Positions 5,424 to 59,284 of a DNA stretch of 64,000 nucleotides are shown in pieces (position 1 is the stretch's first letter; each line of letters opens with the position of its first letter). The notes below the pieces were generated by a model. The model ran no database searches, was not told the DNA's origin, and saw only the letters and a program-made list of their open reading frames with translations. The translations under genes and the position numbers were made by a program. The stretch lies in assembly GCF_051903065.1 (NCBI RefSeq), contig NZ_CP178438.1; one strand, 5' to 3'. This DNA is from Escherichia coli. GTDB taxonomy: Bacteria > Pseudomonadota > Gammaproteobacteria > Enterobacterales > Enterobacteriaceae.

Positions 5424-5848
5424 TGGAACTGTGGCTGACGGTGAACGGTAAACGCACCTGCGCCAGCGCACAACTGGATCCGCTGACCCGCGCCGTGGTG
5501 ATTTCCCTGTTTACCTGGCGGCGGGCGGAGCCTGATGACAACGCCGACGTCCCGATGGGATGGTGGGGGGATACCTGGCCTGCGGTACAGAATGACCGTT
5601 ACGGCTCCCGACTGTGGCTGCTTCAGCGCAGCAAACTGACCAATCAGCTGGTGCAGACGGTAAGGGGGTATATCCGCGAATGCCTGCAATGGATGATTGA
5701 TGACGGCGTGGTGTCCCGTATTGATCTGGATATCCGCCGCACCGGGATTAATGAACTGGGTAACAGTATCACTCTCTGGCGTCGTGACGGACCGGTAATG
5801 ATTTCTTTTGATGATCTGTGGAGTGCGATAACGCATGGCGGACAGTGA
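5420..5848 (+). CDS. Phage GP46-family baseplate protein
   Basis: 142 aa; position and size match Mu gp46. Confidence 0.6.
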   Translation: MMELWLTVNGKRTCASAQLDPLTRAVVISLFTWRRAEPDDNADVPMGWWGDTWPAVQNDRYGSRLWLLQRSKLTNQLVQTVRGYIRECLQWMIDDGVVSRIDLDIRRTGINELGNSITLWRRDGPVMISFDDLWSAITHGGQ

Positions 5849-16612: not shown

Positions 16613-17806
16613 GTGTTTCAAAAAGTTGACGCCTACGCTGGCGACCCGATTCTTACGCTTATGGAGCGTTTTAAAGAAGACCCTCGCAGCGACAAAGTGA
16701 ATTTAAGTATCGGTCTGTACTACAACGAAGACGGAATTATTCCACAACTGAAAGCCGTGGCGGAGGCGGAAGCGCGCCTGAATGCGGTGCCTCATGGCGC
16801 TTCGCTTTATTTACCGATGGAAGGGCTTAACAGCTATCGCCATGCCATTGCGCCGCTGCTGTTTGGTGCCGACCATCCGGTACTGCAACAACAGCGCGTA
16901 GCAACCATTCAAACCCTTGGCGGCTCAGGGGCATTGAAAGTGGGCGCGGATTTCCTGAAACGCTACTTTCCGGAATCAGGCGTCTGGGTCAGCGATCCTA
17001 CCTGGGAAAACCACGTAGCAATATTCGCCGGGGCTGGATTCGAAGTGAGTACTTACCCCTGGTATGACGAAGCGACTAACGGCGTGCGCTTTAATGACCT
17101 GTTGGCGACGCTGAAAACATTACCTGCCCGCAGTATTGTGTTGCTGCATCCATGTTGCCACAACCCAACGGGTGCCGATCTCACTAATGACCAGTGGGAT
17201 GCGGTGATTGAAATTCTCAAAGCCCGCGAACTTATCCCATTCCTTGATATTGCCTATCAAGGATTTGGTGCCGGTATGGAAGAGGATGCCTACGCCATTC
17301 GCGCCATTGCCAGCGCTGGATTACCCGCTCTGGTGAGCAATTCGTTCTCGAAAATTTTCTCCCTTTACGGCGAGCGCGTTGGCGGACTTTCTGTTCTGTG
17401 TGAAGATGCCGAAGCTGCAGGCCGCGTACTGGGGCAATTGAAAGCAACAGTTCGCCGCAACTACTCCAGCCCGCCGAATTTTGGTGCGCAGGTGGTGGCT
17501 GCGGTGCTGAATGACGAGGCATTGAAAGCCAGCTGGCTGGCGGAAGTAGAAGAGATGCGTACTCGCATTCTGGCAATGCGTCAGGAACTGGTGAAGGTAT
17601 TGAGCACAGAGATGCCAGAACGCAATTTCGATTATCTGCTTAATCAGCGCGGCATGTTCAGTTATACAGGTTTAAGTGCCGCTCAGGTTGACCGACTACG
17701 TGAGGAGTTTGGTGTTTATCTCATCGCCAGCGGTCGCATGTGTGTCGCCGGGTTAAATACGGCAAATGTACAACGTGTGGCAAAGGCGTTTGCTGCGGTG
17801 ATGTAA
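16613..17806 (+). CDS. tyrB: Aromatic amino acid aminotransferase
   Basis: 397 aa starting at GTG ([14 protein letters not shown]...); track ORF begins at an upstream ATG. Confidence 0.9.
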
Positions 17807-34835: not shown

Positions 34836-34941
34836 TAGGCCGGATAAGGCGTTATACGCCGCATCCGGCAATCAATGCCTGATGCGACGCTGTCGCGTCT
34901 TATCAGGCCTACAAACCGTTACCGACTCGCATCCGGCAATT
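34836..34941. repeat. REP/BIME cluster between yjcH and acs
   Basis: gccggataaggcgttatacgccgcatccggca and gcctgatgcgacgctgtcgcgtcttatcaggcctac REP units. Confidence 0.85.
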
Positions 34942-45328: not shown

Positions 45329-45338
45329 TTGAAGATTG

Positions 45339-45517
45339 CCGGGGTTATCCCCCGGCAATGTGTGGATGCCTGATGCGACGCTGGTGCGTCTTATCAGGCC
45401 TACGTCAGACAGCGCAATAGCCTGATTTAGCGTGATTTTGTAGGTCGGATAAGGCGTTTACGCCGCATCCGACATCAACGCCTGATGCGACGCTTAACGC
45501 GTCTTATCAGGCCTACC
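45339..45517. repeat. BIME (multiple REP units) downstream of gltP
   Basis: Hairpin gccggggttatcccccggc followed by repeated gcctgatgcgacgc...gtcttatcaggcctac and ggataaggcgtttacgccgcatcc units. Confidence 0.85.
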
Positions 45518-46207: not shown

Positions 46208-46258
46208 TTTGATAATACGATTGGGTAGGGAGTAACCAGTATAAAGAGTTCGAATGGA

Positions 46259-46286
46259 TAAAAAAACAGCCTCCGAAAGGAGGCTG
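46259..46286 (-). terminator. Rho-independent terminator of fdhF
   Basis: cagcctcc-gaaa-ggaggctg hairpin followed by a T-run on the minus strand. Confidence 0.7.
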
Positions 46287-46300
46287 TAGAAAGGACTGTA

Positions 46301-48448
46301 TTACGCCAGTGCCGCTTCGCGCAGGCGAGTTTTCAACTTGTTGTACTCGTCAATCACGTACTGCTCGGCGGCGCGCTGATCGGCGATCGGCTCGACGCGC
46401 ACGGCGCAGTATTTGTATTCCGGCGTTTTCGTAATCGGGCTTAAGTTTTCGGTAACCAGCTCGTTACAGGCACCAATCCACCACTGGTAGGTCATGTAAA
46501 TCGCCCCTTTGTTCGGACGATCGCTGACCTGCGCACGGGTGATAATTTTGCCTTTACGCGAGTGCACCCAAACCAATGCCTCATCTTCAATACCCAGACG
46601 TTTGGCGTCTTCGGTATTGATTTGTGCGTAGCCAGGTTCATCCGCCAGCGCCGCCAGTGCCGCACAGTTACCGGTCATCGAACGGCAAGAGTAGTGACCA
46701 ACTTCACGCACCGTTGACAGTACCATCGGGTACTCGTCGGTGAGTTTGTCGATTGGCGCTACCCAGTCGCAGGTGAAGAACTGCGCCAGACCGTTCGGGG
46801 TATCAAACTTCTCTTTAAACAGATAAGAAGTCCCCTGATCGGCATCTGAAGTATCGCGGCAAGGCCACTGAATGAAGCCCAGTTCGCCCATTTTCTCGTA
46901 AGTCGCACCGTAGAAATCCGGGCACAGATGACGCAACTCATCCCAGATCTCCTGGGTGTTGTTGTAGTGCATCGGATAACCCATACGGGTGGCGATTTCA
47001 CTGATGATTTGCCAGTCCGTTTTCAGATCCCATTTCGGTTCAACTGCTTTGAAGAAACGCTGGAAGCCACGGTCAGCCGCAGTAAACACGCCTTCATGCT
47101 CGCCCCACGACGTTGACGGTAAAATAACATCCGCCGCCGACGCGGTTTTGGTCATAAAGATGTCCTGAACGATAACCAGTTCCAGATCTTCAAAGGCTTT
47201 ACGTACTGCCGACAGCTCCGCGTCAGTTTGCAGCGGATCTTCGCCCATAATGTACGCGGCACGCACTTCGCCATGCGCTGCGCGGTGCGGCAGCTCGCTG
47301 ATGCGATAGCCGGTATGCGCTGGCAGGCTTTCCACACCCCAGGCTTTGGCGAATTTCTCGCGGTTAGCCGGATCTTTCACGTACTGGTATCCCGGATACG
47401 TATCCGGCAGCGCGCCCATATCGCAGGCACCCTGCACGTTGTTCTGACCACGAACCGGGTTTACACCCGCATGCGGCTTACCGAGGTTACCGGTCAGCAT
47501 CGCGAGGCTGGTCAGAGAACGCACGGTTTCCACGCCCTGGTAGAACTGGGTTACACCCATGCCCCACAGGATGGCGGCGCTTTTCGCCTGGGCATACATC
47601 CGTGCCGCCTGACGAATCTCACTGGCGCTGACGCCGGTGATATCTTCAACCGACTCCGGCGTGTAGCCTTCAACGATTTTACGATACTCTTCAAAGCCTT
47701 CTGTACGTGAAGCGACGAACGCTTTGTCGTACAGATTTTCTTCAATAATGACATGGCCCATCGCATTCAACAGCGCGATGTTCGAGCCGTTTTTCAGTGC
47801 AATGTGCATGTCAGCAATGCGCGCGGTTTCAATTTTGCGCGGATCGCAGACGATAATTTTCGCCCCGTTACGTTTAGCGTTAATTACGTGATTCGCCACG
47901 ATTGGGTGGGAATCCGCCGGGTTGTACCCGAAAACGAACACTAAATCGGTATTATCAATTTCGTTAATAGCATTGCTCATTGCGCCATTACCGACCGATT
48001 GGTGCAGACCTGCAACCGATGGGCCGTGTCAGACACGAGCGCAGCAGTCAACGTTATTGGTACCAATAACGGCGCGCGCAAATTTTTGCATTACATAGTT
48101 GGTTTCGTTACCCGTACCACGCGAGGAGCCGGTCGTCTGGATGGCATCCGGACCGTACTTCTCTTTGATGGCGCTCAGGCGCTCGGCAACGTAATTCAGT
48201 GCCTCATCCCAGGAAACAGGTTCGAGTTTGCCGCCACGCTGGCGACGGATCATGGGGGTTTTCAGGCGCGGGGTCAGGATCTGGGTATCGTTAATGAAAT
48301 CCCAGCCATAATAACCCTTCAGACACAGGGTACCCTGGTTGGTTTTCCCCTGCGCTGCCTCCGCCCGGACGATTTTGCCGTTATCGACGACCAGGTTGAT
48401 TTTGCAACCTGATGCGCAATAGGGGCAAACCGTGACGACTTTTTTCAT
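46301..48448 (-). CDS. fdhF: Formate dehydrogenase H (selenoprotein; in-frame TGA = Sec140)
   Basis: The two track ORFs 48029..48448 and 46301..47980 are in the same frame, separated only by TGA at 48029-48031; combined 715 aa; N-terminal CPYCASGC Fe-S motif; SECIS immediately 3' of the TGA. Confidence 0.95.
47988..48028 (-). other. SECIS element (selenocysteine insertion sequence) of fdhF
   Basis: mRNA reads UGA-CACGGCCCAUCGGUUGCAGGUCUGCACCAAUCGGUCGGUAAUGGC, the classic fdhF SECIS stem-loop. Confidence 0.9.
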
Positions 48449-48497
48449 CGGTCTCGCTCCAGTTAATCAAATCACGCATACGCGCTCTCGACTACAG

Positions 48498-48516
48498 TAT
48501 GCATCTTTTATGCCAC
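48498..48516 (-). promoter_or_regulatory. Sigma54 (-24/-12) promoter of fdhF
   Basis: Minus strand reads TGGCAT-aaaag-ATGCA. Confidence 0.8.
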
Positions 48517-48549: not shown

Positions 48550-48640
48550 CACTATTTATTCAAAACTCTGACGAAAAACAGGCTGTCGTCAGTTTTGACG
48601 TGACGAAACGAAATACCGCGTGACAGCCATCACGCGGCAG
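48550..48640 (-). promoter_or_regulatory. Probable FhlA upstream activating region for fdhF
   Basis: Position ~60-150 bp upstream of the sigma54 promoter; contains repeated GTCGTCA / TGACG-like motifs; sites not individually verified. Confidence 0.35.
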
Positions 48641-55969: not shown

Positions 55970-56677
55970 ATGAAACCCGTCGTGCTGGTGGTGGATGATG
56001 ACACGGCTATCTGCGCACTGTTGCAGGACGTGTTAAGTGAACATGTCTTTACGGTTTCAGTCTGCCATACCGGACAGGAGGCCATATTGCGTATTGAGGG
56101 CGATCCTGACATTGCGCTGGTGGTGCTGGATATGATGCTACCCGATACCAACGGCCTGAGAGTATTGCAGCAAATCCAGAAACTGCGTCCGACATTGCCG
56201 GTGGTGATGTTGACCGGCATGGGCAGTGAGTCTGATGTGGTGGTCGGGCTGGAAATGGGCGCGGATGATTACATCTGCAAACCGTTCACCCCGCGGGTGG
56301 TGGTCGCACGACTGAAAGCGGTGTTGCGACGGGTTGGTGCGCTGGCGGTTAATGACGAGAAAAGCGCCGGGCTGTCATTCAATGGCTGGTATCTCGATAC
56401 CATGCGCTGCCAGTTGCACAATCCGCTTCAGCAACATGTCGAGTTAACTCAGGGCGAATATGGCTTGTTACTGGCTCTGGCGCAAAACGCGCGTCGGGTA
56501 TTGAGCCGCGAGCAGTTGCTGGCGTTCACCCACAGCGACAGCGTGGAGGTGTTTGATCGCACCATCGACGTATTAATCATGCGCTTACGACGCAAAATCG
56601 AACTCAACCCGCATCAGCCGATGTTGATTAAAACTCTGCGCGGTCTGGGGTATGTCTTCGCTGCCGACGTGCATTAA
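55970..56677 (+). CDS. OmpR/PhoB-family response regulator
   Basis: 235 aa; receiver domain (VVDDD...D at ~55 aa...K) plus winged-helix C-terminus (...TLRGLGYVF); GGAG RBS 8 nt upstream; not present at this position in K-12. Confidence 0.85.
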   Translation: MKPVVLVVDDDTAICALLQDVLSEHVFTVSVCHTGQEAILRIEGDPDIALVVLDMMLPDTNGLRVLQQIQKLRPTLPVVMLTGMGSESDVVVGLEMGADDYICKPFTPRVVVARLKAVLRRVGALAVNDEKSAGLSFNGWYLDTMRCQLHNPLQQHVELTQGEYGLLLALAQNARRVLSREQLLAFTHSDSVEVFDRTIDVLIMRLRRKIELNPHQPMLIKTLRGLGYVFAADVH

Positions 56678-57675
56678 TCCGACATTTCTGTTTGCAGCTC
56701 TTCCAGCGTTTTCGCCCCGTCGATGGCATTGGCGCATAACAGGCTTGCCCGCGCGCAGGCGTGTGCCAGTTTGATGCTCTCGGTAAGCGTCCAGCGTTCA
56801 TGGCAGCCATATAAAAATCCGGCACAAAATGCATCGCCCGCGCCGACGCTGCCGATAATTTCCCGTTGTTCTAACTTTTGCGAAGGGATCCACACGCCGC
56901 CCTGTTCTGGGGTCTCTCCCCACGCCCCTTCCGGGCAGTGGATCACCACCCGCTGGCGCACGCCCGCATCTAACAGTTCACGCGCGGCGGCAGCAATATG
57001 CGCGATATGCGGTTCGCCGTTGGGTAACCGAATTTCCAGCCCGCTAAACTCCCCGGCCTCCAGTTCGTTAATTACCAGATAATCCAGATGGCGCAACGCG
57101 GGCAGCACCAGCGGCTGATAACGCGGATCGCCCTTACGGGAGACCAGGTCGAGTGAGGTTTCAAAGCCAGTATCACGCATTTGCGCCAGCAGGCGTGCGC
57201 TACGGGTGCCGTAAACATCGTCCGGCATATCCAGGCTGTCGAGCAACAGTAAATAGCCGAGATGGAAAATCTTCATGGTGTTATCGAGCTGATCGAACGC
57301 CGGAAGATCCAAAAGTCTGTTTGCACCCGGCGAATGGAAAAACGTCCGCTGCCCGCTTGGGTCTGTCATCACCTGCGACATCGACGTCGGGGCAAAGGTA
57401 GTGCGCTGCACATGCTGACGATTGACGTGATATTGCTCAAGCATCGCCATGATGTAATCGCCGTCGCTGTCCTGACCGATTAGCCCAACCGCCTGTAACG
57501 GCAGCCCGGTGCGCATTTTCGCCAGCGTCAGCAGGACGTTAAGCGGCGCACCGCCGGTGGAGCGTTCGCTGTGGGTGATCTCCGCCAGCCAGCCGCGCTC
57601 TGGCCACTGGATAATCTGATGGACGTGGTCAACCAACATATTGCCTGCGGCGATAATCCCTTTACGCTCCATCAT
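56674..57675 (-). CDS. PfkB-family carbohydrate kinase
   Basis: 333 aa; C-terminal GAGDAFCAGFLYG ribokinase-family signature; start ATG overlaps the aldolase stop (ATGA). Confidence 0.8.
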   Translation of the reverse strand: MMERKGIIAAGNMLVDHVHQIIQWPERGWLAEITHSERSTGGAPLNVLLTLAKMRTGLPLQAVGLIGQDSDGDYIMAMLEQYHVNRQHVQRTTFAPTSMSQVMTDPSGQRTFFHSPGANRLLDLPAFDQLDNTMKIFHLGYLLLLDSLDMPDDVYGTRSARLLAQMRDTGFETSLDLVSRKGDPRYQPLVLPALRHLDYLVINELEAGEFSGLEIRLPNGEPHIAHIAAAARELLDAGVRQRVVIHCPEGAWGETPEQGGVWIPSQKLEQREIIGSVGAGDAFCAGFLYGCHERWTLTESIKLAHACARASLLCANAIDGAKTLEELQTEMSD

Positions 57676-58532
57676 GCCTGCCCCGCACTGCCAAAAATAC
57701 GCATCTGTTGTGCAACCGTATCGCTGATGGCGGCTTCCACTGCCAGCAGTAACTCGGCAAACTCGTCATACATCGGCTGACGGTGCGCCATTCGGGCCTC
57801 AACGGCAGCCAGCGCCGCTTGCGACATGCCAGTGTAGAAATTGATTTTGTGGATACCCAGTTCGATGGCGCGGCGGAAATCGGCATCGCTAATCCCTGAG
57901 CCGCCGTGTAATACCAGCGGGATAGCAGCCTGCTGGCGGATAGCGTTGAGGCGCGGGAAATCGAGTTTCGGTTCGCCGCGATATTTGCCGTGTGCATTGC
58001 CAATCGCCACGGCCAACGCGTCAATGCCGGTACGGTCGACAAAATCACGCGCCAGTTGCGGATCGGTAAACAGGGATTCATCGGCATGGCCATAGAGTGC
58101 ACCGCCTTCGTCGCCACCCACCGCGCCCAGTTCAGCTTCTACCGATACGCCAACGGCATGGCACATTTTCACCACTTCCCGCGTCTGGCGGACATTTTCT
58201 TCATACCCCAGCGTGGAGCCATCAAACATTACCGAGCTGAATCCCAGCCGCAACGCTTGCACCACCGATTCAAAATGCAGTCCGTGATCGAGATTTAACA
58301 CCACCGGAATGGCATGACGCGCCGCTTCAAATTTCACTGTCTCGACCAGGGAATCCAGCGAGATATATTTAAAATGTACTTCGGCAATGTTGATAATAAA
58401 GGGCGAACGTTCTTGTCTGGCAGCAGCAAACAAGGCGCGTAAAAAGTGCGAGTCCAGCACATTAAACGCACCTAACGAATAGTGATGTTCGCGGGCATGT
58501 GCCAGCCCTTCAGCGAGAGAAATCAATGGCAT
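57672..58532 (-). CDS. Class II (metal-dependent) ketose-bisphosphate aldolase family protein (FbaA/GatY/KbaY-like)
   Basis: 286 aa; HGGSG motif and conserved His residues of class II aldolases. Confidence 0.8.
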   Translation of the reverse strand: MPLISLAEGLAHAREHHYSLGAFNVLDSHFLRALFAAARQERSPFIINIAEVHFKYISLDSLVETVKFEAARHAIPVVLNLDHGLHFESVVQALRLGFSSVMFDGSTLGYEENVRQTREVVKMCHAVGVSVEAELGAVGGDEGGALYGHADESLFTDPQLARDFVDRTGIDALAVAIGNAHGKYRGEPKLDFPRLNAIRQQAAIPLVLHGGSGISDADFRRAIELGIHKINFYTGMSQAALAAVEARMAHRQPMYDEFAELLLAVEAAISDTVAQQMRIFGSAGQA

Positions 58533-58546
58533 AACGTTATCCTTAT

Positions 58547-59230
58547 TCAGCGGAACTGGCGGTATTCGTTACACAATACCAACTGTGCAGGTTCGTCTTC
58601 GTCAATCAGGTTGTAGCGGTCCAGTGGCTGTAAAAAGTGGTTATCGTGGTCGTCGTCATTGACAGAAGAGACTTCGCCAACCAGAACATCGCCAAAGCCG
58701 GTTTCCGCCCAAAAGCTGTGATACAGGCCGGGCGGCAGGCAGATACTTTCGCCGGGAGACAGGCGCAACTGAGTGCCTGCAGTATGTTTCTGGCGGCAGC
58801 CGTCTATCACCACCGTAACGTCACTATCAGCCGTTTGCTCGTTACTATCGGCATTCCACAGTTCAACAATTAAATTACCGCCGCCGCGATTGATAATGTC
58901 CTCACGCTTACGCCAGTGAAAATGCATTGGCGTGACCTGCGCATCGCGCACATGCATGATCTTCTCGGCGTAACATTTCACATACGGCATTCCTTTTGCT
59001 GAGCCGTTACGTAGGGTAAACAGCGTCAGCCCGTGTGCTGCAAAGTTGTTGCGACCAAAAGCGGTAACATCCCAGCCGAGTTTAAGATCAAAAACCTCCT
59101 CCCACGCGGCGGTGTCGAGCTGCTGCCATTGAGCAGGCGAGAAACTGGCAAAGGGCGGCAGATGTACGTCATGTTGCGAAAAGAATTGCCGTGTATGGCC
59201 GAGAATGTCGTTTATAGCGGAGCGTTTCAT
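58547..59230 (-). CDS. Cupin-type sugar isomerase, D-lyxose/D-mannose isomerase-like
   Basis: 227 aa; resembles the small cupin D-lyxose isomerase family described in E. coli O157:H7 (recalled, not searched); embedded in a sugar-transport operon. Confidence 0.6.
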   Translation of the reverse strand: MKRSAINDILGHTRQFFSQHDVHLPPFASFSPAQWQQLDTAAWEEVFDLKLGWDVTAFGRNNFAAHGLTLFTLRNGSAKGMPYVKCYAEKIMHVRDAQVTPMHFHWRKREDIINRGGGNLIVELWNADSNEQTADSDVTVVIDGCRQKHTAGTQLRLSPGESICLPPGLYHSFWAETGFGDVLVGEVSSVNDDDHDNHFLQPLDRYNLIDEDEPAQLVLCNEYRQFR

Positions 59231-59284
59231 CGAAAGCGTTCTCCTTAGCGGTGACCGGGCAGCTGCGCCGCCCGGCGTGTGGAC

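Follow-up and report, generated by a model that had tools for sequence, protein, structure and literature searches.

The DNA analysed here, referred to throughout as the window, is a 64-kb stretch of Escherichia coli sequence that carries fdhF on its minus strand. This gene encodes formate dehydrogenase H (FDH-H) and is flanked in the order mdtP-fdhF-yjcO, matching the arrangement in K-12. The features of the locus are as follows, some located by database models and others, as worded, read from the sequence.

46301..48448, minus strand: fdhF coding sequence, 715 codons and a TAA stop, for formate dehydrogenase H, an enzyme that contains selenocysteine and molybdopterin
48029..48031, minus strand: UGA codon 140, the Sec140 codon, with C as the next base
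47982..48036, minus strand: SECIS, the SelB-binding mRNA hairpin, matched by Rfam RF01988 (SECIS_2)
48457..48460, minus strand: putative Shine-Dalgarno sequence GGAG, 8 nt upstream of the ATG
48500..48516, minus strand: sigma-54 (-24/-12) promoter, GTGGCATAAAAGATGCA, found by its pattern and the same in sequence as the site mapped in K-12
48560..48608, minus strand: candidate FhlA enhancer (UAS) region, suggested by its repeats
46258..46287, minus strand: intrinsic terminator after fdhF, from a terminator scan

Translated in a single frame, positions 46301-48448 of the minus strand give 716 codons including the final stop, with stops at codon 140 and codon 716 only. The mechanical list of open reading frames divides this region into two minus-strand entries, 48029..48448 (139 aa followed by TGA) and 46301..47980 (559 aa), the second of which is listed from its first ATG, at 47980, corresponding to Met157 of the complete protein. 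Between the TGA and this ATG lie 16 sense codons (48028-47981) that are in frame, contain no stop and are absent from the list; they make up the SECIS element and are identical to residues 141-156 of FDH-H. The TGA is the sole interruption of the frame between the two listed ORFs. The first-pass annotation had proposed that the two ORFs, in the same frame and separated by the TGA at 48029-48031, are one intact gene of 715 aa, and the single-frame translation agrees with this on every point.

With codon 140 read through, the predicted protein is identical at all of its 714 other residues (714/714) to the solved E. coli FDH-H, and the alignment reveals no added frameshift or stop, as had been anticipated from the sequence. 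PDB entries 1AA6, 1FDI, 1FDO, 2IV2 and 7Z0T share one common chain, which is entered there as formate dehydrogenase H and has a non-standard residue, X140, that aligns with the TGA codon of the window gene. The product scored 1095.7 bits against the NCBIfam equivalog model TIGR01591 (Fdh-alpha; cut-off 666.25), residues 6-685 being aligned with profile positions 1-672 of 672, and no other NCBIfam model reached its own cut-off on this protein. Three Pfam domains, all above their gathering scores, follow one another in the order PF04879 Fe4S4 (1-54), PF00384 Molybdopterin (61-487) and PF01568 Molydop_binding (576-682), and the Molybdopterin domain spans the TGA unbroken. Cys8, Cys11, Cys15 and Cys42, which we take to be the 4Fe-4S ligands of the published FDH-H structure, are all in place; so are His141 and Arg333, presumably the active-site residues of that structure together with Sec140, and position 140 itself is the TGA codon.

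The SECIS element was searched for with the Rfam covariance models. SECIS_2 (RF01988), the enterobacterial fdhF-type family of bacterial SECIS, matched over the full model (1-55/55), scoring 87.1 bits where the family's gathering score is 70, with E-values of 1.4e-18 when 5 kb was searched and 1.8e-17 for the whole 64-kb window. A canonical fdhF SECIS had been claimed directly downstream of the TGA, and this score substantiates the claim. The match begins 5 nt ahead of the UGA, and its bases are those of the model consensus except at position 2, where a U stands in place of a weakly conserved c and is joined to position 54 by a G-U pair. A second Rfam model, SECIS_3, also matched at this site, at 35.8 bits and thus below its threshold of 63. 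In the minimum free energy (MFE) fold of 48034-47985, the hairpin pairs 48029-47990 and contains one bulged U; the upper stem-loop comprises 17 nt (48017-48001), starts 11 nt past the UGA and carries the apical loop GGUC (48010-48007). SelB needs the upper stem-loop to lie some 11 nt past the UGA, with G and U in the apical loop and a bulged U, and the predicted geometry agrees with this rule for E. coli SECIS elements in its spacing, its GGUC loop and its bulged U. The folding energy of the element (-14.9 kcal/mol) was not significant in comparison with shuffled sequences (z = -0.67, 48 of 200 shuffles folding as well or better), a z-score that is no curated criterion of the SECIS_2 family; short GC-rich hairpins rarely surpass composition-matched random sequence in this respect. 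Stability was consequently dropped as evidence, and, the folding energy being ordinary, it is the hit to the covariance model, together with sequence identity to the characterised element, that carries the SECIS call. The identical SECIS of K-12 has been shown experimentally to bind SelB and to direct selenocysteine insertion (PMC4513850).

Both the coding sequence and its surroundings are very close to those of K-12 MG1655. The two coding sequences differ at 10 nucleotides, all of them third-position and synonymous, and 9 of the 10 are downstream of the TGA, where the nine changes are spread over 575 codons and are all silent (9/9). Random substitutions in coding DNA mostly alter the amino acid. 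Such a run of silent changes past the TGA argues for purifying selection on the frame, unlike what would be seen in the tail of a dead gene, and purifying selection is seen on both sides of the TGA. Across the species, 5419 of the 5426 complete E. coli genomes carry fdhF, and the 70 nt around the TGA and SECIS were at least 99% identical in 5405 of the 5420 matching E. coli records.

Upstream of fdhF, the promoter sequence GTGGCATAAAAGATGCA equals the sigma-54 motif given for fdhF in a ChIP-seq table for E. coli (PMC4591121). The pattern TGGCA-N7-TGCA occurs twice in the 64-kb window against 0.96 expected, which is no rarer than chance, so that the promoter is assigned on the strength of its identity to the motif mapped by ChIP-seq in K-12. 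The second occurrence, TGGCAACATGGATGCA, is at 17145-17160 on the minus strand within tyrB, and the count as a whole fits chance. Further upstream, the candidate UAS contains TTTCGTCA twice, 32 nt apart, together with a perfect inverted repeat of 8 nt (AGTTTTGA/TCAAAACT). For FhlA, a 16-nt consensus, CATTTCGTACGAAATG, has been published (PMC4987338), and a search allowing up to 3 mismatches gave no match to it anywhere in the window; the repeats at 48560-48608 probably mark the FhlA enhancer region. Downstream of the gene, the terminator consists of a 9-bp stem, ACAGCCTCC/GGAGGCTGT (46287-46266), followed by a run of seven T, and is identical in K-12.

No tRNA gene was found in the 64-kb window, hence no tRNA-Sec, and the annotation of the collinear relative shows no sel gene in the matching stretch. 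The selenocysteine machinery was for this reason checked in relatives. In 23CRST027 (NZ_AP045789.1), the nearest complete genome, tRNA-Sec, selB, selA and selD are all annotated with no pseudogene flag. Species-wide counts, obtained with K-12 sequences as queries, placed selAB in 5425, selC in 5424 and selD in 5425 of the 5426 E. coli genomes. The first-pass annotation had suggested looking for this machinery elsewhere in the genome, and it is present in 23CRST027 and in 5424-5425 of 5426 genomes; by extension from these relatives the source strain's own selA, selB, selC and selD are probably intact. The hyc, hyp and fhlA genes and those for the molybdenum cofactor, among them moa and mob, lie outside the 64-kb window as well, and going by the same relatives they would be expected to be in a similar state in the source strain.

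The window is collinear with 23CRST027, with 99.6% identity over positions 1-25000 and 100.0% over 39001-64000. Positions 1 to about 11100 are a prophage end adjoining dusA, with genes for a tail tape measure protein, a DNA circularization protein, baseplate and tail fibre assembly proteins, a recombinase, a DinI-like protein and a tyrosine integrase, several of which are flagged as frameshifted or partial in the nearest genome; positions 1-25000 are covered to at least 80% in only 115 genomes. At the other end, beyond yjcS (about 55970-64000), the annotation of the 100%-identical relative shows an accessory sugar-utilisation cluster comprising a response regulator, a carbohydrate kinase, a ketose-bisphosphate aldolase, a D-lyxose/D-mannose isomerase, an ABC transporter and a hybrid histidine kinase. 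Only 405 of 5426 genomes cover at least 80% of positions 39001-64000, a stretch which therefore varies within the species. Among non-coding elements, the Hfq-binding sRNA sraL was located at 27460-27600 on the minus strand, at the 3' end of soxR (Rfam RF01408, 153.3 bits), and Rfam naRNA4 (RF02564) matched at 34838-34909, 45337-45400 and 45443-45513, all on the plus strand; two of these matches, with 76.9 and 75.2 bits, exceed the gathering score, and the remaining one, with 50.4 bits, falls short of it. According to the relative's annotation, these naRNA4 matches sit in the yjcH-acs and gltP-yjcO spacers, and they look like REP/BIME-type repeats.

Taken together, we consider that positions 46301-48448 of the minus strand are an intact E. 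coli fdhF, a single selenoprotein gene in which UGA140 is recoded by means of the SECIS, with a probability of roughly 97%. UGA140 of E. coli fdhF serves as the selenocysteine codon in recoding experiments, and its recoding by SECIS and SelB is established (PMC4513850). A plain ORF scan does return two ORFs, an output that would also be given by a pseudogene in which translation genuinely ends at the TGA, leaving a fragment of 139 residues as the sole product. Some truncated product does arise from this gene, as only about 30-40% of ribosomes insert selenocysteine at fdhF UGA140 in reporter assays (PMC4513850). Nevertheless, the TGA and the next 55 nt form a canonical SECIS that is near-invariant in 5405 of 5420 records, the nine post-TGA changes relative to K-12 are all synonymous, which is unexpected in untranslated DNA, and there is a solved enzyme with the same residue 140, making a pseudogene extremely unlikely. 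That both ORFs start with ATG would suit two separate genes, one for a small 4Fe-4S protein of 139 aa and the other for a molybdopterin protein of 559 aa starting from the ATG at 47980. This arrangement is vanishingly improbable, as the Pfam Molybdopterin domain and the TIGR01591 alignment both cross the junction, the crystal structures contain a single chain of 715 residues, the 16 codons from TGA to ATG continue the FDH-H sequence in frame without a stop, and RefSeq annotation has one CDS.

A full-length protein could also be obtained if the UGA were decoded mainly by near-cognate Trp or Cys tRNA, in which case the enzyme would be poorly active. Low-level, SECIS-independent misreading of UGA is treated as a real background and is controlled for in recoding assays (PMC4513850), and it could become dominant without selenium. 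The intact SECIS and the full sel set of 23CRST027 favour the dedicated pathway instead, and plain read-through would not need strict species-wide conservation of the SECIS; we regard near-cognate decoding as the main route as very unlikely. A different suggestion accepts the recoding and adds to it, namely that the 139-residue fragment with the Fe4S4 domain, released when RF2 wins at UGA140, has a function of its own, or that selenium-dependent pausing at the SECIS regulates fdhF mRNA through uncoupling of transcription and translation. Termination by RF2 at UGA140 is the outcome for most ribosomes in reporter assays (PMC4513850). No support for a function of the fragment or for regulation by SECIS pausing was seen within the window, and we hold either to be decidedly unlikely.

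For selenocysteine recoding of an intact fdhF, the preferred reading, the course of events in the source strain can be proposed from what is known of K-12. The mRNA hairpin of 40 nt beginning at UGA140 would bind the elongation factor SelB carrying Sec-tRNA(Sec), and UGA140 would then be read as selenocysteine instead of serving for termination by RF2. In the finished protein, Sec140, adjoining His141 and Arg333, would be the molybdenum ligand of the active site. FDH-H binds Mo-bis-MGD, oxidises formate and partners hydrogenase 3 in formate hydrogenlyase, and the 715-residue product of the window gene would accordingly be expected to act as the formate-oxidising subunit of that complex. Transcription from the sigma-54 promoter would be turned on by the formate-responsive activator FhlA. 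SelB binding, selenocysteine insertion, activation by FhlA and enzyme activity are thus all predicted here by analogy with K-12.

The first-pass annotation had also warned that automated annotation might miscall the gene as a pseudogene, a concern that the public records do not support: nucleotide-identical copies in RefSeq are annotated as one fdhF CDS of 2148 nt that has a protein accession and is flagged neither as a pseudogene nor as a join, and K-12 fdhF is likewise annotated as a single CDS. The split into two ORFs comes solely from plain ORF listing, and the risk of a miscall is confined to naive ORF finders. Prodigal-type callers would be expected to divide the gene, and PGAP to return one CDS. 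A point of nomenclature concerns the RefSeq genomes H62 (NZ_CP038300.1) and H69 (NZ_AP043630.1), in which fdhF (site matching 47976-48045) is named 'formate dehydrogenase N subunit alpha, selenocysteine-containing'. This label is a product-naming inconsistency with no underlying sequence difference; the protein is of the H type and scores far below the cut-off of TIGR01553, the FDH-N alpha model. The value of the present case is for annotation only, in that scans should spot a TGA accompanied by a SECIS_2 match and join the pieces of fdhF. Recoding of UGA140 in fdhF is a textbook case and already known, and, with its SECIS, it is a standard model of bacterial selenocysteine insertion, so biologically there is nothing new here.

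Among known systems, the other two E. coli selenoproteins are FdnG and FdoG, of formate dehydrogenases N and O, which also have a UGA-encoded selenocysteine and a downstream SECIS and which belong to the same molybdopterin oxidoreductase superfamily as FdhF. FdnG (1KQF) is a distant match to the fdhF product (E = 7.6e-45), and TIGR01553, whose cut-off is 814, gives this product 249 bits. FdnG and FdoG are proteins of about 1015 aa that are exported by the Tat system to the periplasm, whereas the window protein, with 715 aa, is of the cytoplasmic H type. K-12 fdhF (b4079) shares with the window gene the 714 standard residues, Sec140, the 2148-nt length of the CDS, the mdtP and yjcO neighbours, the sigma-54 motif and the terminator, and differs from it only by the 10 synonymous changes in the CDS, by one base in the 197 nt upstream and by one base in the 93-nt downstream spacer. 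No functional difference from K-12 fdhF is expected.
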